Source of the DNA: Camelus dromedarius
Lineage: Eukaryota
Direction: 5' to 3'
NCBI RefSeq assembly: GCF_036321535.1
Contig: NC_087436.1
Location: forward strand, 38,008,001-38,072,000
DNA length: 64,000 nt
The notes under the pieces: model-generated
The model's database searches: none
Told to the model about the DNA's origin: nothing
The model's input: only the letters and a program-made list of their open reading frames with translations
Made by a program: the position numbers and the translations under genes
Shown here: in pieces, positions 5,978 to 58,039 of the stretch
Numbering within the stretch: position 1 is the stretch's first letter
Layout: the number at the start of each line of letters is the position of its first letter

Positions 5978-6394
<417 letters not shown>

Positions 6395-14685: not shown

Positions 14686-14850
<165 letters not shown>

Positions 14851-17800
14851 TGGTAGCTGCACAGGAATTAAGCCATTCAGAAGGGCTCCTGATATGAAAC
14901 CCAGATTTCTCTCACCTGATTAGCATAGCAGAACTAGGCAAAAGTAATTCACTGGTCTCAGAGTTCTTATTTGCCGAACTTTAGAGTCTGTAGATAATAT
15001 GCCAAAAAAAAAAAAAAAAAAAAACCCAAAAAACTACTTTTATCAAGAAACAGTACAAATGGAAAAAAAAAACTTTGTAGCCTTTCAAAAGACTACTGTG
15101 TTATGTCTTATAAAAATGGAAAAAGTTGCTATGGCTCTTCTTCTTGGCCATCTCTCTATAATGAAGTTTATTAACATACCCCTTATGAGGCTCCTTTATT
15201 TCGTTATCCCTGTGTGTGCTTGTGGGTATCTGCGTGTGTGTGCATCTGCGTGTGTGTGTGTGTTTGTACATGCTGGTTATTGCAACTGGTTATTACCAGT
15301 TTAGCCAGAAAGAAATGAAGATTTCCAAGCTATTTCATTGCAGATAAGGATAAGAGGCAAGAGTATTCAAAGTCTCTAATAGGATAAAATCTGCTATTCT
15401 GTGAAACAGACCAAAAGTTGATCTTATTTAATAGCTCCCTATAACAGGTCAGTTTAAAATAAAGAGGTATTTAGGAACTAAAACATCTATTGAAATATTG
15501 CTTATTCCAGACAATTCTTAGGAAACATTTCCTCTCATCATACAGATATGGACATTCATGGTCTGGAATGCTTTTATAGGATCTACACAAAAATATTAAA
15601 TACACTTAAATATTTATCAAGCTGATCCTCCTGAGTTTGTGCTAGCTATCTTTAGAAATTAACAATATACAAATATACATAACTAAAACTTGAAACAGCA
15701 CAGCTCTCAGTATCTGTTGACTGACAGAGTGCCAGCACGACAGGCGTGTTACAGTATTAGTCATGATGAGCCTGGCCCTGTACCCTCTCATTCCACAGGA
15801 GTGCGCAGAACATGTTAGTACAGATAAGAGTCCTCAGAGCACTTACACTCTGTTTTGCAAAAGATATTTTCCAGAATCTTGGCAGTAGGTGATTCTGAAA
15901 CACTTCTGAATTACCCCCCATCCTGTATAATCAGGAATCCAGAATAAAAAATCCAAACAAACCTGGCAATTTAACAATCGAAACAGTGACTGAAATAATC
16001 ACTGATGCATAAGGGAATCTGAAGCAAGAAGCATTTCTTCTTTTAAGGCTGTATTTCAATTAAATACTGGAGAGCAACACACAATGAACAGCTTATTTGG
16101 GGAGAAGATGTGATAAAATGTAACAGTGTTGTCAAAACACCATAGAAGAATCCAAAAACCAGGAAAAAAAATTAAAATGAAGCCCAATTCATGAACTTTT
16201 TTATTTGGAGACCACTCAAAAGAAAGGAGCAAGGGAGGGTATAGCTCAAGTGGTAGAGCGTGTGGTTAGCGGGCACGAGGTCCTGGGTTCAACACCAGTA
16301 CCTCCTCCAAATATAAATAAATAAATAAACCTAATTCCCCCCCCCCGCCTCATAAAACAAATTAAAAAAAAAAGATGTAATTTCAAGGAAGTTATTTAGT
16401 TCTAATGGTTTACGGAGAAAGGTTATCTGATGACACAATTCTTTGAAATTAGAAAACTTGATTTAGAATTATATTTATGCTCAGTTTATTTTAAAAAGAA
16501 ACAAAGATTCATTAAAGATATTTAAACTCAGTAAAAATACTAGATTTGAGACTCTAGAGCTAACTTTAAAATATATAAATGCCCAGATTCTAATTTAGAA
16601 GGTATCTCAGTATGGCTATATGTAATGTAGCATTTGTATCTGACGTTATAGACTGTATTTCATACCAATAGATTTTGGTCTTGTTTCTCACTATGTCATT
16701 TGTTTCAACAGTATATTTTTAGAACTCAAGTGTTTTCAGTTTAACGTGACTGTGTGTTTAATATCATTTGAATACAAAGGACAGCTGTAAAATTTTGTAG
16801 TGTGTATATTTAATCACGTTCTGCTCATTCCTTCGGATGCTGCCTTCTCTGAAATGGATGCTCCATGGCCCGATTATGTGATGAATGTGAAACTTGAAAG
16901 GAAGCCAAATGCCCATTTTGTTTAATCTCAGTGGCTCACAACTGACAGGGCTGCTGAGGAAATCACCCTGGGAACCATGCTACGGCCATGTGGTGGAGTA
17001 AACTGATGAGGATGAGGCGCTGGGTCTGACCAGGCTGAAGGTCAGTAGTCAAGCAGAACTTTTCAAAATCCTGTGTAAAGACCTCTTGGGGCACCACCCT
17101 TTCTTTTCAAAGCACTGAAACCAAAACAGGTCCTTAGAAGACTGTTTGTATGCTGTCACCTTTTATCCAAAAGACCACTACTTATAAGCATCTCAGATAT
17201 ATTAGTATTTCTGTCCTGCAACTTTTGGACCACTTAGCAATAACAAAAATATGAGAATTGATTTTTTTAGGTTTGAGAAATTAAGAGCATAAATACAGTC
17301 CTAGAGGAAAAGTCTCATAGGAAAGCTGGAGAGCACGTACCCACTTTGAAGTCTTTCTCTTCTTTCCTGCTGTGAAAGGCTACGGTTCTGGTACTATCTT
17401 GGGAAAAGGCCACACTCTTTTACCTTGAAGTCAGGGCTAAGGAATTTTGAAAGGTATTCAATAATACGGGTAGGCTCAGATATGGGTTTATAATGACTCT
17501 CTTTGTATATTAAACATTCAAAATATTTGTGAAAAATCCTGATTTTCACAAATGTAATGGAAGGATGCTAAAAGTTATGGTGAATGTTTTAGGTATTACC
17601 TTTTTAAAAGTGGCATTTCATCACTTTGGTGTTGCCTCAATCCTGTGAGGTTTCCCTGATACAAAAAAAAAAAAAATTACCATCATTGTGTCTCCAAATA
17701 GTAGATTTAGAAATGATACATGATTTAACCAGCTGAGGCACTAGTAGTTTGGAACTTTCATAGGCTTAACTACCTTGGGCTCAAAACCATGTTATCATCG

Positions 17801-30992: not shown

Positions 30993-31230
30993 AAATGAAG
31001 GTGAGTAATAGCTGTAACCTCTACCTCCTGGGCACTTTCTATGTGTTAAAGCTCATTTTACCTTCAACTTAGGCAAGGAAATGGCCAGTATTTGTGCCTG
31101 TTATACAGATGAGGAAACTGATGTTTTAGGTGTTAGATAGATTTCACAAACTGGTGAATGTCAGCAATGACGTTGGAATCCATTAGTAGAAATTTGGTTT
31201 TATCAGAAGCAGAAGCAGAAGCAGATGTCA

Positions 31231-31380
31231 GGGGTAGGTATAGCTCAAATGACAGAGTGCATGCTTAGCATGCATGAGGTCCTAGGTTCAATCCTGGTAC
31301 CTCCTCTAAAAACAAACAAACAAACAAACATAATAACACCACCCAAAAAACAAACATAACGAACAAAAAACAAACAAAAA
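31231..31380 (+). mobile_element. vic-1-type SINE
   Basis: tRNA-Ala head and (caaa)n tail; 16-bp TSD aagcagaagcagatgt at ~31213 and 31382. Confidence 0.9.
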
Positions 31381-32172
31381 TAAGCAGAAGCAGATGTGAA
31401 ATTCAGGGAACAAATATTCCTTCAATATGATAAAGAATTCAAAAAATTTTGTCTATCAAATATTTGAATGAGGGTGCTTCCAGAGAACGACTTTTCTCTT
31501 TCTGGAGCTGAATGTGATGGATAATTTGTATTCAGTGATCTTCTAAGGGGGCTTCAGATGCTGTCTAGGGCTTGGGAGTAGACGTCGTCCTTCACTGTCT
31601 TCACTCTATGACGGCGTAATTGTATCCCACAAAACCTTTTTTGAGGTTTCAGAGTTTTCTGGAGCTAAGAGACAGCATGTTCACTATTATAACACATTCA
31701 TTATCATCACCACTCGCACCAATACACCACATCTTTTCTAAGATAAACAAAAATAGCCTATGACAAAATTATAATGGACTTGCTAATGCACAATTTAAAA
31801 GAGCATTTATTTGCTATGCAGTTTTGACCAAAAAAAGTCCATTGTTTCCTTCTCTTTGAAGCTCAGGGACTAGTTATTGCCATGCTAATCGGTAATAAAT
31901 GCACCTGGAGAATAGCTTTTAAAGGACTGAAAATGATTCTGAGTTCTGTCTTTATAAATAGGTCTAAAAAAGAAGGCACTTTTTTTCAAGTGATGAAGAT
32001 GTAGTTGTTACATTAAAAATTACAAAATGAGATTTTTGGGTAGACATTTATATATAACAATATAGTTTTATTACACGTACAAACATACAGGTAGGTAAAT
32101 AAATACTTATATACACATATTCAAACATATAACACATATGCCTTTATAAAATGGTAAGACCTGAAAATGATC

Positions 32173-35600: not shown

Positions 35601-35944
35601 GATGTAATTTTCTTTTTATTGAGTAAAAAATACATTATCTCTAGTTTCTTAACCCTTACCCGTGAGCTCCATCAGGAAGTGTTCAGTGGTAATAACACCA
35701 AGTTGAAATCATCTATATAAAGAATGGTAGGTTTCCCCCTACCACCACCACCAGACCACACATATTCTTTTACATTCAATTTTATATAGTTCATTTGGCT
35801 ACAATATTCTAATTCCAGTCTGAATTTTTCTTCCCTAGTTCTTTTTAAGTGTTTTTAAGGCAAGGACTGCCAAGGAAATTAAATTCAATTTAGTAAGTAC
35901 TTACTGAAAATATTTTTGTAGTTGGGTTATAAAAGTGACACTGG

Positions 35945-36853
35945 AAACAAGATGACAGACTAGGAAGTTTCAGGCCCTTGTTCCCCGACAAAGACACTGA
36001 GATCACATCAATACAAGGAGCCAAATATGCTTGTAAGAACTCTAGAGACCAGCTGAGAAGCCATACTACCCAGGCCAACGTAACATCCAGTGAAGTGGCA
36101 CTGTAACTTCCATCTTGGTCTCTTGGATCCTTAGCTCTGGGGGAAGTCAGACTCCATGCTGTCCAGATGCTCAAGCAAACCTGTGGACAGGTCTAGGTGG
36201 AGTGGAACTGAGACGTCCTGCCAGTAGCCATGTGAGTGAGTCACCTTGAAAGTGGATCCCCCAACCCCAGCCAAGCCTTAAGATGACTGCAGCCCTGACT
36301 GATATCTGACAGCAAACTCATGAGGGATCTCAAGCCAAAACTGTCTAGCCACGTTGCTCCCAAACCCCTGACTCACAGAAACCATGGGAGATAATACATT
36401 ATTTATTTAAGACACTAAATTTTAGAGTAATTTGTTACAGAATAGTAGATAACTGCTATGGGTTGACCTGTATCCTCCCTAAAATTCATATCTTGGAAGT
36501 CCTAACCCTCTAAAATGAGACTTTATTTGGAGACAGGTCTTTACAGAGGTGGTCAAGTTAAAATGAGGTCATTAGGGTGAGCCCAATAAAACTGACCTCC
36601 TAGAAAAAGGGGAAATTTGGACACAAACATGCACACAGGGAGAAAGCTATGTGAAGATGAAGACAGAGGTTAGGGTACTGCTTCGAGCCAACAAGCACCA
36701 AAGACTGCCAGCGAGCCATGAGGAGCTGGGTGAGAGGCCTGGAGCGGATTCCCTGTCACAGTCCTCAGAAAGAGGCAGCTCAGTCAACACCTTGATTTCA
36801 GACTTCTAGTCTCCAGAACTGCAGCAATAAATCTCTGTTGTTCAATTTTTTTA
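35945..36853 (+). mobile_element. Composite retroposed insert: L1-5'UTR-like head, MLT1F-like 3' part, MLT1B-like LTR cut after AATAAA
   Basis: Perfect 14-bp direct repeat aaaagtgacactgg at 35931-35944 and 36854-36867; AATAAA at 36826. Confidence 0.75.
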
Positions 36854-36867
36854 AAAAGTGACACTGG

Positions 36868-37320
36868 GCCACGTATCATGCCTTGGTACTAATATCCTCA
36901 TCTTTTTAAACCCTCCTCACACTGAAGGGTGAAAGTCTAGGAAGTGCATTCCCAGACCCGCTGGCCAGCAGGCTCCGGAGGCCTCTGACGTCGAGCAGCA
37001 CTGGCGGGGGCCTGCGGAGCAGCTGAGGGGACGTGGCATGACCCTGCAAGCGGCTGCTGCGGTCAGGGTGTGGGCTTCGTCCTGCGGCCTGGGTGGGTGC
37101 TTGGAGTTCGGGAGTCTTCCTGAGAATTGTTCGCTTTGATACTACTGGCAATTGGTGGTGGTTTTCCTGTGGTCTCAGCAGTTTCGAACTTGGTAAAAGT
37201 GGCCCCTCTGACACTCACTCAACCTCTGCGCTCACAAGCCTCTATCTCCTTTTATTTAAGCACTTCCTGTTGAACCGTCTAGAGTGGTCCGGTTTCCCTG
37301 ACCAGCCCCCGACTATTACA
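36868..37320 (+). mobile_element. ERVL LTR (LTR33-like), its 5' tip at ~35917-35944 split off by the composite insert
   Basis: tgtagttggg start upstream of the insert; tgcattcccagac and terminal ctagagtggtccggtttccctgacc...gactattaca. Confidence 0.5.
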
Positions 37321-40300
37321 TACACTGTCACGGCCCTTTAAGATCAGGAGAAAATGAAAACCACCAACTGTTAAAATATGAGGCAGAAGAATGTAAGAGG
37401 CATATGAGTGCTATACACAAAGTGCATGGCTGCTTCAGTTCTAGGAAACACCTCTGTTCGTGGCAATCACCGGCAGACCGTGTGGAAGGACTTCTCTCCC
37501 AAGAACCTTGTGAGGCGATAGGTTTTGATGAATGGATAGGGACTTGGGGTTATAAAATGTATGACACTGAGTCAGCGACTTATTAAATAAATAAATCATT
37601 ATTTTTTCCTAGGTCTAGGAATTGTGAGGTGATGTCAGTTAATTAAGCAAACAACCTTTCATCTGTAAAATGGAGCTAATAACACTTACCTGGCAGAACT
37701 GTGGTGTAAGTGAGAGATGAAACCTACAGCACCAAGCACGGTGTGGGTATTAAACAAACAGTAGCCATGGCGGGTGTTGAAAGGCACTCCTCCCAATAAA
37801 AGAAATGTATTAAGAAAATAGGGTCTGGTAAGACCTTGACAGAGGACATCCTGTGAAGTATGAGGACAGAGTCTCTTACCATCGGTGGGATCATGCTCCA
37901 TTCCATCTCTACTCAATATATCCTCACGGTGATCATTAACCTCATGGTGACTGATAACTATTTGTATCTTAATTTCATGTTAGGACTATGGCAGCAGATT
38001 TAAGAGTCTTCCCAAGAATCTTACAGGATTGCTGATAAGGAAGTGAAAATTACTGCTTCAGATCATGTTCAGGATTAATCTCAGCAATCAATAGCATTGA
38101 AAAAATCTCAGACTTTATTACTAGTTATTTTCCATATAATCAGCATACATTATGTCAACTTAAAAACATAAAGAGAAATGAGAGTTGACGTATTTTGTGA
38201 TTCACACACTGATTTAACAAAATATGGCAAAATCAAAGAGGCATGGAAGTAAAACAATATAAGCTAAAGTTCATATTTTATAATATTTTATAAAATAAAT
38301 ATATGGCATATAAAACTGTTGTATTCTGTTTAAATTTCCTCCTCATATTAACTTTCACTAATTGTCACCAATTTTTCTTAAAATAATATTAATCATTTAA
38401 TGTAATCATGGTCAAATAAGTATATTCAGAACCAATTTATTATAATTACATTTATAAAAACAAAAGCCTGAGGATGATAGGTCTAAGATAAGCATTCAGC
38501 AAAGAGGCTCTTACTTTCAGCTTAAGGAATAGAGCCCCCCTCCTTTTTGTTTCTTGTTTATAAGGTTCTTCTAGCTTTGATTTGCTGCTGATCACCACTA
38601 ATAACACATCATACGCGCTGTTGTTACTCTCATCCTCCCTAACAAATATTATTAATTTTCTACAATCAAGAACTTGCAAAAAAAAAAAAACACAAATAAT
38701 TTTAGCTACTAAAAGTACAAGTATCCATTTTAACTATCAAGTACTTTCTTGAAATATTAATATTGTTAATATTAACAGTACATGTCTTAAAATGAAATAA
38801 TGTCCTTAATTTATCTTTTACTTCTTGGTGAGGTAGAGCAATTCAACTAAAAACTGTAATCATTTCTGTATAATAACAACAAGATATCTCAGAAACATAT
38901 CTCACAGTATTCACCACAGAGCAGTGTGAATGTTAAAACGACGACTGCTAACTGAATCACTGTTTTCTAAAAGTCTAGTAGTGGATGTCTTGTCTTTAAC
39001 AGAATATTTTGGAATGTGGGTTGCAAATAGCTCTTTACAATTTGGACCACATAAATGAATACTAAAATACACTACATAGAGAAACAAATGAAATCAAATG
39101 CACCAATGTCTCACATGTTCAGCATTTTGGGAAAAATTATATTAGTGAATTTTCTAGGATTAGTATGTATATTTTTGAAGTAATCAGTTGAAAAATTGTA
39201 ACTTTTGATTTTTTTCTTTGATTCTTAAGTATTACATACTAAAATCAGTCAGAATTATTCTAAATTCAAATGTAAAATAATTCTGTTTATTCCCAGGGTC
39301 AATCTTCTGCTAACAGTTTGACTCTTAAGGTAGCCAGGGACTTGTGATCCACTGCTTCTAATTTGCTATGATTTGAGGAATCAAGTTTCCAATATTGTGT
39401 GAATTAAGTATAAACTAGAAATCAATATGTTCTGAATGATAGCCTGAAGGCTCATACAGTGGGGCTGGGATGTAAGCAGAATTATGTTATGATAATACTG
39501 AATATATTAAAGTATTTACCATTTGGGCTGTAATCATTAAGCACACAGTTTTCTGTGATTTCTTATCTGCCCTGTTGACTCAGAATGTCCCCCCCTGTCC
39601 TGCCATCCCTTTTATATCTTGGTACTCTTCTGAACTTTGCAAATCTTTTAGACAACCAGGTTGTGCATGTATGTGTGTGTAAAATACAGTGAGCTTTTGT
39701 ACCTGTTTATGTACCTGTGTGTATGGTGAGTTGCTGAGATAGGTAGTTTTTAATCCATTAAAATATTTCAATGTACCATTTTATTCCCAGTTCTTCTGCC
39801 AAGCATATGAAGTATTTTACTTTGTGTCATAAAAGTGATGTTATAGCACATGTGCTCTAAGATTTAATACATTGTATTTTGAAAAGGTTGAAATCTGCTA
39901 TCCTGAACCTCAAATGTTATAGAAACTTTAAACTATTTAGCTTAGTTAGAGAAGGCTGGGCATATTTAAGGATATTATGTGCCTTGTATTCCTCCTTAAG
40001 AAACAGACTTTCTGGGTAATGGCTGTAACACTTGACTCTGTTGTCTATCACACTAAGACTCAATAATTGAAGGTGAAGGAAGCTGACCCTGGAAATAACA
40101 AAGACAAATTAGACAGAATGTATTGATTTCTGATGTAGCAGATGGCTACCTGATGGAACTGTTTTTATTTACAGAAAGTGAAGCAAAAGTACTTAATTTT
40201 TCAGAGGTACTTTTCAAAAGCCCAACTATTAGATGAATAAAGTTTTTAAAAGATTCAAAGCAAATGTTACTAATCATTTGGAATCTAGGTATCCCAGTTC

Positions 40301-53710: not shown

Positions 53711-55914
53711 AGAATAAGCTCTTCTAAGTCCAATGGTAGCTCGAAAGTCATCTTAATTATAAATGCCATATCCCAAATTGAAGAGCTATTTATATTTGTT
53801 TCCTTACTTGAAAAATAGTCATAATAATATCTACTTCTATGTTTGATATTGATCTGATAGAATTAAATGTGACAATACACCCAAAATGATGATCTTATGC
53901 CTAACTTAATACTGTATTTGGTATTGTTATTATTGTCAATCATTTTCAAATGGTCTCCCAACTTATTTCCTTACAGATCTGCTTAACAGTTTTGAAAAAA
54001 TGTGAGAATATGGCTGTTGAATCTAAGCATAAAGACTTTTGGTTTCCTGCTGTAATCAAGCATAATGCCAATGAAATCAGGTACACTTCTTTTACTCTTT
54101 GACGAGGCCAGGCTATAAAATCCTTAAATATATTAATACCAGGAGGAAAATCTTTTTCAGAGTCTGACTTTCTGCTCCTAATATTTATTTCTTTTGAAAC
54201 AAGAGAAGATACAGGTCCTTGATTGAATTTGTTATTGTCTGATAGTTATGCAAAATAGTACTTTCATGTTTCTGTTTCTCACATTCAACTTGTTTTTTCC
54301 ACTTTTTGTGCTCAGTTGGAATTGTACTCAGTTGGATAAGAGATTAATTCTTAGTTTGATGACAGTTATAATTTCCAGGTGTAAAGCTTTTGCATCTTAT
54401 TACAAATTGGACTAATGACTGTTTTCTTCTCGTAGTCCCAATTTTAGTCTATTTTTCTTCTCAGGTTGTACTGTTTCCTCTGTATGGTAAGTATTTTACA
54501 CTCTGCCTGTAATTTTGGAATCCTTTTACTTAATACATCTAAAGTGTTTGACATCATTTGATTTTAACTATAGAAGACTGGCACAATGAAACTTACAATG
54601 ATTTTTTTCCATAAAAAATCTAGAATTATCACTTACAAGGTAGTACTATTGATAATTTGCGTAGGCATTGTTTTGCACTGAAGTTCTAAGTTTCCAAATT
54701 AGTTCTGCTATTAAAAAAAAAAGTAAAAGCTCTTTTAGAGCAAATTTGTCTATAGCATGACTGAAGCGTCTAATTCCAACTCAAGAAAAGCCTTAAGAAT
54801 TCTCATTAGGAATATTTTTCTTACGGGATACAATTTCTCAATGGTAGGACATATAAAAATAATAAGCTGAAACTTTCACTCAGGCTTATAACTCATGCAC
54901 AAAAATCTTGTTTAGGAAATCAAGAAAATATATTTCCTCACCCATTTTTGTAATTTAGCTTTATTTGAATAGTTAGAGGATAAGTTTAAAATAATCCCAT
55001 ATGGAATAAGACTAAATGTGGAAAAGTAGAATTTAAAATGTGCCCTTCTTTTTAAATAATAAATAAGTGATGGCCCTGTTATCATGAAGAACCCAGAAAT
55101 CATATATTTCAGCACATTTAATGGTGCAACGGGTGACTGCAGGCAAGGAGAGGTGACTGCTCCCAGGGCGAAGCTCCACTTGTACTTAGAGAAGGACTCT
55201 GCTGTGAAACGGCTGCTGGCAGGAGGGGAAAGAGGGCTTGGAAAGTCAAGAGCTCCTTTCAAACCGAGTCTTCTTGAAGAGAAGGGGTTTCAATACAATA
55301 ATAGTAGGTCAACCCTGCTCTTACAGACATTATTAAAACAATCTTAAACTTAAGAAAACTTTTATATAAGTGACTTTTAAACTTCCAAATTTTAAAATTC
55401 AACTAAATTTATTTATTTATTTTACATGGGATCCTGGCTAGTTTCCACTTCCTGAGGTTTTTTTTTATTCTGAGTTTATTTTTCAGACTAATTACCCTCA
55501 CCTACATAAACTTCCTTGTTTTCAGAATATTTAATTGGCTGGTCAAGTGTCTCTGCTCTCCAGATGACAGTTATCTATCATGCATTCTTCAAAGGGGTGC
55601 AGAATTCGGACCAGATGACATCTACTCAAGGGTATAGGAGGAACTGAAGCATTAAATTGTGGCAGTGCTCATCCACATGTGTAGCTCATCATTGCAAACA
55701 AGTCCTCAGCCAATAGAGTGGTGTTTTGTCACTGTGATCCATAATTGTTGGGAGGGTTCCAGAAATGGCATAAGGAATTATGCATAGAGCAGGTGGCAGG
55801 TGGGCACCCACAGTGGGTTAAATGAATGTATGACTTACTCTGGAAGCTGAATAAGTTACAGACTGGCATAATTTGGATATGTGGTAAATTCTTAGCAAAT
55901 AAAAAGATTACTTG

Positions 55915-56071
55915 GGGGAAGGGTATATCTTGGTGGTAGAGTGCATGCTTAGCATGCATGAGGTCCTGGGTTCAATCCCCAGTACCTCCATTAAATAAAT
56001 ACATAAATAAATAAAATAAATAAACCTAATTACCTCCTCCCACCAAAAAAGCAACAACAACAACAAAAAAG
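55915..56071 (+). mobile_element. vic-1-type SINE
   Basis: tRNA-Ala head; perfect 18-bp TSD aaataaaaagattacttg at 55897 and 56072. Confidence 0.93.
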
Positions 56072-58039
56072 AAATAAAAAGATTACTTGTATCTAGGTTC
56101 TCATTATTTAGAAGTTGATCTTGAACTTATACAAAGAAATTGGAATTAAAGTGCTGTAAGCAATTGACTGTCATACAAGATTTGCCTTTTTTTAAATCAC
56201 AAATTCATAGTTTCAGGATAATTTTTATCTTTTCTACATAAAGGGAAATAACAGTAATTTTATACCTTCAAGGAAAGAACAAGATCTTTAATATTTGCCT
56301 TTTAAAAAGTAAAATGATAACAGATACCCATTGGCAGGAGATAGTCCTGTACCTTCAATCTGAATCATCTGAATAAAAGGAAATCTCACATCCCTTTAGA
56401 TTTCACAGGCTCAAGGAAATGTGAAATATTTGACATTTTCACCTTAGTGTTTTCACACATAAAAGAGACACCTTCCAAGGGTAAGTAGCAAATTTTCCTT
56501 TCCTGTTGAAAGCTAGTTTTGCAACTCAAAGTTCAAATAAGGAAAACGCTGCTCTAGAATTTTCGGAAATGCTACAAGGCACACACAGTAAACTCCCGTT
56601 ACACTGTGTCTGCACGTCGCCCTCAGTCAGAATCTTAGTGAATTGCTGAGAATTTAGAAATTATCCCTTCTAACCAGTCTACCATGTAGGTGAAAATCAG
56701 AAAAGGTGTAAACCTGTGCATTGACAGAGCTCAATTCTTTCAGTCTTAGCTGCACATTTACTTGTCACTTAAGTTTTAATTGGCTAAAATTAGGCCCCTT
56801 ATTTTCATTGAAACTATGCAAAGTTTTAATCGTGCAGCAGCTACTACACTGACTCTGGTTGTGACCCCTTGGAAATCAAGGCTGCAGTTACTTTTGCATA
56901 CGTGCATATTACTCTTTGAAAATAAACTCAAAGAGGAGATGAAGCTGAGTCTTGCAGCCTATCAAATGTTGAAGACAGAAAATTCACTGCTTTCTAAGCA
57001 AGAACAAGATCCTATGAGAGTATAGGAGGCCCTTAGGGAAGCAGTGGAAAGGGGCCAATTGTAGAGGGCCTCCCACACCAGAGAGAGGAGCATATATTTA
57101 AAACGTTAGTCAACAAGGAAGGGTGACAGGGATGTGGGGAAGTATGCTGCGTGATTAGTGTCATTAGAGAGAGCATCTTGGCAGCGGTGCACAGAACAGA
57201 ATGCACAGGAGAGAGCCAGGGATTGGGAACCACGGTGCCACTTAGAGCTTGAATATCAGGCACTGATTTCTGACGGACCTCTGTTTGGAACCCAAGCTGA
57301 GTAAGTATGAGTTCCAACGTCCTGTTTCTGAAAGGACTTGAGCACCAATCACGTCCTGTCCCGTCGGGGTACTAGCAGCAGCTGCGTGGTACCTGCTCCT
57401 CGGGGTCCTGAGCTCCAGCAGCCCAGGCCCCTTCTCTCAGCTCCTGCAGCAGCAAGCGGGATCCCCTCCCGAGGTCTGAGCACCAGCTCTACCAGCCTCT
57501 CCCTCAAGCTCCTTGGGGCTGATATTCTCAATCTCCACCTTTTTGTTCCCCCAGCCTTAGTGGAGCTGTCCCTGCAGTTCTCATTTCTGGATGACCTTAG
57601 TCTCCTCCTGTTGCTTTTTCAGGCCTTCAGAACATGTGTGAGCTGATCTCTGTAGTAAATCCCTCCACTGCAATCCCAGGTGTAGTTTCCATTTTCCTGC
57701 GTGGACCCAGACTGATAGAATGAGCAGGTGTATAATCTATGTGGACAACATGGCAGGAACATCGGAACATAAAAATGTGGGCATGGTCAGGGAAGACAAG
57801 TAGTTGGATGTGATTAGACCACATGGCTGGACATGAGATTTCCTGAAAATTCAGCTGGGAAAAATTAAGGTGGGGTTTTAGTGACATATTAAGTGTCTCC
57901 TTATGTACAAACAAAACTGACTTCTATTACTTGCGTCATCCATCCCAATAATTTCCTCAGGAACACACTGATCTGGCCTAATTTTAAAATGTGATCTTTT
58001 AAAACACACAGAGACTCTTAAGCTTCCCCATCAGGTTAC

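Follow-up and report, generated by a model that had tools for sequence, protein, structure and literature searches.

The window, by which we mean the whole 64,000-nt stretch that was analysed, belongs to a single 2.3-Gb mammalian assembly (G000:C1:38008001-38072000), in which the genomic searches were made. Its forward strand carries exons of a C2H2 zinc-finger gene (6260–6376 and, with a terminal stop at 14850, 14689–14850; Pfam zf-C2H2), with a C terminus that we take to resemble that of PRDM5. On the same strand, some 21 kb downstream of the final coding exon, lies a 0.9-kb patchwork of three old repeats inside a 14-bp duplication. The anatomy of this element is real: every coordinate that the initial annotation gave for the composite proved right when checked on the letters of the window (Table 1), including the place where LTR similarity begins (36097–36098, given as a jump out of the head at ~36097), the AATACA at 36393, the second LTR starting from TG at 36454 and the AATAAA at 36826. 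The L1 head, first LTR and second LTR all share one orientation. Right after the element, the sequence at 36900–37500 is unique, single-copy and richer in GC and CpG (GC 0.59 and CpG o/e 0.63 at 37001–37200, versus 0.26 for the window), and could be a weak promoter or enhancer.

Table 1. Parts of the composite element at 35931–36867 of the window.
Feature	Position	Strand	Remarks
Left 14-bp direct repeat, probable target-site duplication (TSD)	35931..35944	+	Preceded by T (T/AAAA, L1 endonuclease-like)
Three extra A, from 14-bp repeat to L1 head	35945..35947	+	L1 relatives differ at these bases
Old L1 5' end from YY1-like site	35948..36097	+	~10 nt absent near 36085; donor-like GT column at end; 66% mean and 77% best identity to 26 relatives
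First LTR, 3' part, old and high-copy	36098..36453	+	AATACA at 36393; last few bases cut by second LTR
Second old LTR	36454..36845	+	TG start to 14 nt past AATAAA (36826–36831); last ~50 nt absent
Seven T and one A where a poly(A) tail would be expected	36846..36853	+	
Right 14-bp direct repeat	36854..36867	+	

The window contains exactly two copies of the 14-mer AAAAGTGACACTGG, starting at 35931 and 36854, which confirms the perfect repeat that had been described as bracketing the insert. The left copy stands at an L1 endonuclease-type site (AT/AAAA, 35929–35934, a variant of TT/AAAA). Between this copy and the L1 head lie 3 nt, and between the end of LTR similarity and the right copy 8 nt. 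Shuffled windows contained on average 1.51 pairs of at least 14 bp within 3 kb and 0.01 such pairs with a T/AAAA start; pairs that had both a T/AAAA start and an AATAAA ahead of the second copy were absent from 100 shuffles. The 14-bp pair by itself is not rare, and it is the position at both breakpoints that makes the TSD convincing. We calculated a chance of 3.5e-6 for a 14-mer pair at two given boundaries, and in the real window 24 of 959,791 block pairs shared a 14-mer (2.5e-5; 6 were non-simple). Chance thus places a repeat at both breakpoints only rarely (about 4e-6 to 3e-5 per boundary pair) and, even if a window offers several hundred boundary pairs, arithmetic puts such a coincidence near or below 1%. 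The length lies inside the range of about 7–20 bp expected for an L1-mediated retrocopy. It also falls within the peak at 14–16 bp described for L1-made TSDs (PMC2912911). Length, T/AAAA site and placement at both breakpoints together support the proposal that the duplication is of the L1 type. The left 14-mer occupies the place of the L1's own first 14 bases and resembles them, as do 9 of the 492 T/AAAA sites in the window with an equal score (a count that should include both copies); this likeness may be due to chance or to microhomology at the 5' joining. Elsewhere in the window, a second exact 14-bp pair (11511 and 12392, 881 bp apart) is of low complexity and probably arose by chance, as probably did a loose look-alike of the left flank and repeat (GGGTTATAAAA...TGACACTG) at 37545–37575, ~0.7 kb beyond the element.

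The YY1-like motif CAAGATGA starts at 35948, after the three extra A, and had been read as the YY1-like site of an L1 5' end; this identification is borne out by relatives of the head that continue into remnants of L1 ORF1 and reverse transcriptase (RT). A DNA search of the assembly with 35948–36097 matched seven other loci at 71–90% identity (8 of 8 candidates scored), and a search with one of these relatives gave 42 matches, from which 20 more were fetched, for 27 aligned relatives in all. The relatives have a common 5' boundary ~14 nt upstream of the CAAGATGG motif and long shared sequence downstream. Translated scans (stops as X; Pfam) found L1 domains downstream of the head at two of the four loci scanned: an L1 ORF1 remnant at L032 (Tnp_22_dsRBD, PF17490, E 2.9e-12) and a weak RT remnant at L038 (RVT_1, PF00078, E 8.8e-5, below the cut-off). 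Because relatives carry L1 domains downstream, the head is, judged by this homology, the 5' end of an old L1, presumably of the L1M type. The relatives are 69% identical pairwise (the figures for the window copy are in Table 1; all are based on 26 rows, with L037 omitted as partial), a divergence by which the L1 family is evidently old. The family 5' end (L032–L038 and L073–L092) has a decayed, CRE-like TGACGTCA motif just upstream of the YY1-like site, and the same relatives have a donor-like GT column ~158 nt past that site. Full-length L1 insertions are described as having YY1-directed heterogeneous starts and extra 5' bases (PMC2912911), and, like many of them, the insert starts at a YY1-like site with a few extra bases ahead of it.

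The two remaining pieces, 36098–36453 and 36454–36845, are different high-copy repeats matched at 68–81% identity. They display LTR features (high copy number, common boundaries and an AATAAA near the 3' end), and we presume that the first is MLT1E/F-like and the second MLT1A/B/C-like. Many relatives of the first LTR have AATAAA in place of its AATACA, and 10 of the 13 displayed relatives of the second share its TG start. The second LTR trims the last few bases of the first and was therefore inserted into it. The initial annotation had found the normal end of the second LTR missing; indeed, the ~50-nt end that the window copy lacks is kept by 26 of 29 relatives (scores of 12–26.5 versus 7 for the window), and in the other three (L002, L014 and L023) similarity also breaks near the break of the window copy. 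At one of these (L002/L072:6590-7030; G000:C4, about 31.362 Mb), the LTR is cut 18 nt past the position of the poly(A) signal, four bases further than in the window, and is followed by an AAC-rich run; this locus may be another poly(A)-ended retrocopy, but it was set aside, as no TSD of at least 10 bp was found in the 6.5 kb upstream.

In the window copy, LTR similarity ends at 36845, 14 nt past the AATAAA at 36826–36831 and within the 10–30 nt expected after a poly(A) signal, which supports the claim that the 3' end lies at an LTR poly(A) signal. The terminal A/T tract that had been described is present, but it consists of seven T and one A and contains no recognisable poly(A) tail; no A run outside the TSD is left at the 3' end of the insert, where T7 and one A are followed by the A-rich repeat. 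Such a stretch might represent a tail that was very short or has decayed. The lack of a recognisable tail is a genuine weak point of the retrocopy reading, because two tRNA-like SINEs in the same window (31234, in 31213–31397, TSD of 16 bp; 55919, in 55897–56089, TSD of 18 bp) have perfect TSDs and A-rich tails of tens of bases. Further tRNA-like SINEs lie at 16235 and 60121. A scan with Rfam found nothing in the insert. LTRs have been described as co-opted 3' exons or poly(A) sites (PMC5538554); the insert resembles these cases in that an LTR provides the poly(A) signal of a presumed non-coding RNA, and differs in that it is a fossil copy alone, known from DNA.

The junction between the L1 and the first LTR (junction 1) is compatible with splicing and with microhomology. 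Past the ~10-nt gap, the ATCCAGTGAA of the window aligns with the L1 relatives. In 13 of 27 relatives, the column at which the L1 piece ends has GT, mostly as GTAGGA or GTAAGA; GT(A/G) is found in more than 40% of copies at only 4 of 336 columns, the end of the L1 piece among those four. On the acceptor side, AG stands just ahead of the junction in 12 of 19 LTR relatives. There is no pyrimidine tract upstream (the pyrimidine fraction is 0.29–0.53 in 18 of the 19), and ERVL-class LTRs, as portrayed in PMC5538554, bring no splice acceptor. Both the L1 and the LTR have AAAG(G) at the junction. An exact GT–AG join ties with 19 other joins, each two edits off the observed sequence, and microhomology joins fit equally well. 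Splicing from the putative L1 donor to the LTR is possible and, because of this tie, unproven. We regard splicing and a microhomology deletion, in the parent or in the copy, as about evenly balanced explanations for the loss of the L1 body; the old L1 promoter is a putative driver of the RNA.

The initial annotation had proposed looking for a parent locus, and none was found in the assembly within the sensitivity given below, an outcome that the annotation had listed among those counting against its reading. No match to the whole insert exceeded 75% identity among the best 40 of 3908 candidates scored, and searches with the pieces and junctions (head, 8 of 8 candidates; first LTR, best 40 of 457; LTR–LTR junction, hereafter junction 2, best 40 of 266; junction 1, 8 of 8) returned family-level matches only. 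Among the matches scored, the best to single pieces reached 68–87% over partial stretches, with one at 90% over 49 nt only. None of the seven other matches spanned junction 1, for which a pattern search with up to 3 mismatches found this site alone, and junction 2 was spanned by 1 of 39 other matches (best 40 of 266 scored), L064, with a different breakpoint. All 27 L1 heads examined continue as L1 or unrelated DNA, none into the composite. Patterns of 23–25 nt (up to 3 mismatches) hit other sites for junction 2 (3), the 3' end (4) and the head (13); all 20 of these were fetched, none extends at high identity and none is a parent. The head search recovered 6 of 8 known relatives that share an exact run of at least 15 nt and 1 of 20 that share less. 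A 23-nt pattern would be detected with a probability of 0.81 at 90% identity, 0.54 at 85% and 0.30 at 80%, so that over three patterns a parent would be missed at a rate of about 0.01, 0.10 and 0.34, respectively (arithmetic, indels ignored). A parent of at least 90% identity is thus unlikely to be present in this assembly, and an older one (80% or less) may be.

Several loci were considered as parents and rejected: L064 crosses the LTR–LTR junction at another breakpoint and at 68–72% identity, L032/L070, L036/L071 and L037/L069 have no matching LTR within 8 kb downstream, L034 matches at 90% over 49 nt only, and L015 has the L1 head and LTR on opposite strands. At L064 (1000–1990), an LTR of one type has landed, independently, in the end of an LTR of a different type, and the end of the outer LTR resumes past the inner one. 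Both flanks of the element are single-copy in the assembly, and there is consequently no paralogous empty site. Metagenome matches were dismissed as orthologues; all eight end at or just past the motif and are chance matches. The share of words found in sequencing runs was 0.97–0.99 in 14 DNA-type runs of organism A and 0.71, 0.28, 0.27, 0.27, 0.26 and 0.07 in RNA-type runs; a share near 0.27 would be equally compatible with an incomplete transcript, with a relative that has diverged or with an empty site, and the shares are no evidence for expression or for an empty site. A literature search, to which supplements and most subscription papers were outside the scope, found no published report of an L1-head/MLT1 structure.

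The age of the event can be read in two ways. A perfect 14-bp TSD survives with a probability of 0.24, 0.11, 0.05 or 0.024 at a parent–copy identity of 90, 85, 80 or 75%, respectively. A young event is suggested by the perfect TSD and an old one by the absence of a parent; the parent may thus be young and either lost or not in the assembly; alternatively, an old event has kept its TSD intact by luck. The locus was noticed for its perfect repeat, a choice that favours lucky TSD survivors.

We consider the element to be, probably, a single retrocopy, made by L1, of a non-coding RNA that started at the 5' end of an L1 and terminated at the poly(A) signal of an LTR. The parent locus would have had an old L1 upstream of two nested MLT1-type LTRs, with the RNA starting at the L1 5' end. 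The L1 body would have been lost either through splicing, from a GT that in a relative lies at about +158 from the YY1-like site, or through a microhomology deletion in the parent or the copy. The RNA would have read through the first LTR and been cleaved at the signal of the second, and L1 proteins would then have copied it in trans through target-primed reverse transcription (TPRT), with a tail that was either short from the start or has decayed since. The parent may have been lost, be absent from the assembly or have become too diverged to recognise. Such L1 retroposition is an ordinary kind of event, and the copy is most likely without function. Membership among L1-mediated retrocopies is probable and unproven, because the three defining features (TSD, endonuclease site and distance from the poly(A) signal) are present and the remaining ones gave no clear outcome. 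Like the processed pseudogenes and other retrocopies made by L1 (described in PMC2912911 and PMC5753468), the insert has a 14-bp TSD, a T/AAAA site, a 3' end just past a poly(A) signal, a possible lost intron and a single copy; unlike them, it consists of repeats only, lacks a recognisable poly(A) tail and has no parent that we could find. Spliced integrated retrotransposed L1 elements (SpIREs), as described in PMC5860796, similarly start at the L1 5' end, with a possible 5' UTR donor, an L1 endonuclease site and TSDs of 6–25 bp, a range that includes the one found here. SpIREs are, however, spliced within the L1 and end in L1 sequence and poly(A), whereas the head in the window joins non-L1 LTR DNA through a putative splice; with LTR DNA as the partner and no L1 sequence in the insert past 36097, we rejected its classification as a SpIRE.

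The main rival to a retrocopy, which we judge unlikely, is that an ancient full-length L1 inserted here and left the duplication as its TSD, that two LTRs later landed inside it and that two deletions took, respectively, the body of the L1 and the terminal part of the second LTR; an RNA of such a shape would never have existed. The L1 5' end beside the left repeat and the absent parent are then explained without further assumption, the AAAG(G) common to L1 and LTR permits microhomology joins that fit as well as a splice, and L064 illustrates that LTR-in-LTR nesting arises on its own. The TSD would, however, be as old as the L1 family, and at 69% pairwise identity a perfect 14-mer would survive with a probability below about 0.02 (0.024 at 75%); moreover, the second deletion would have to begin 14 nt past the AATAAA and leave no L1 3' sequence. 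It is very unlikely that the element is a template-switch chimera, in which reverse transcription started on an LTR-ended RNA and, at the shared AAAG(G), crossed over to an L1 RNA at its 5' end. There is microhomology at the junction and chimeras of L1 with other RNAs have been described (10.1101/2025.02.02.635956), but the L1 is the 3' partner in the chimeras described there. The old L1 family would also have to be transcribed at the time, implying an ancient event that nevertheless left a perfect TSD, and a source of the LTR–LTR junction would still be required, of which the DNA and pattern searches with junction 2 found none.

We regard as remote the idea that the two 14-mers are a chance pair, or arose later through local templated duplication, and flank pieces assembled in place: the coincidence with both breakpoints is improbable, even if a window should contain about 1.5 such pairs, the left copy sits at the place of the L1's first 14 bases and resembles them, and there is no tail. 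The initial annotation had also allowed for an undescribed composite non-autonomous retroposon family of the LAVA kind. A composite build with TPRT-like ends is what a member would display, yet neither the composite nor either of its junctions was found again in the assembly, and no whole-insert match exceeded 75% (best 40 of 3908); membership of such a family is barely credible, and for this assembly the family is largely refuted. Like the insert, LAVA and SVA are patchworks of old repeats that L1 probably mobilised; they are multi-copy families with a VNTR core (PMC5174737), whereas the insert is one copy and has no VNTR. PMC5753468 names no composite family other than SVA in human Repbase. 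It is highly improbable that the insert is all that can still be detected of a LAVA-like composite retroposon from a non-primate mammal, one in which an ancient L1 promoter and a family-wide donor would have been spliced to MLT1 LTRs with a poly(A) signal, and the parent and sisters would be lost, too old or confined to related species. From the earlier interpretation, the identification of the head as an L1 5' end, the L1-type duplication and the position of the 3' terminus at the poly(A) signal of an LTR are supported; a composite family is not.

Copies made wholly of repeats escape gene-based screens for retrocopies, and annotation would show three separate repeats at such a locus. One parentless copy alters no concept, and a systematic count of TSD-bounded repeat composites would matter more. 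If the retrocopy reading is true, the element preserves as a fossil a germline non-coding RNA composed of nothing but repeats. It would then also hint that transcription could still begin at a very old L1 5' end, with a 5' UTR donor used and an MLT1 LTR providing the poly(A) end.
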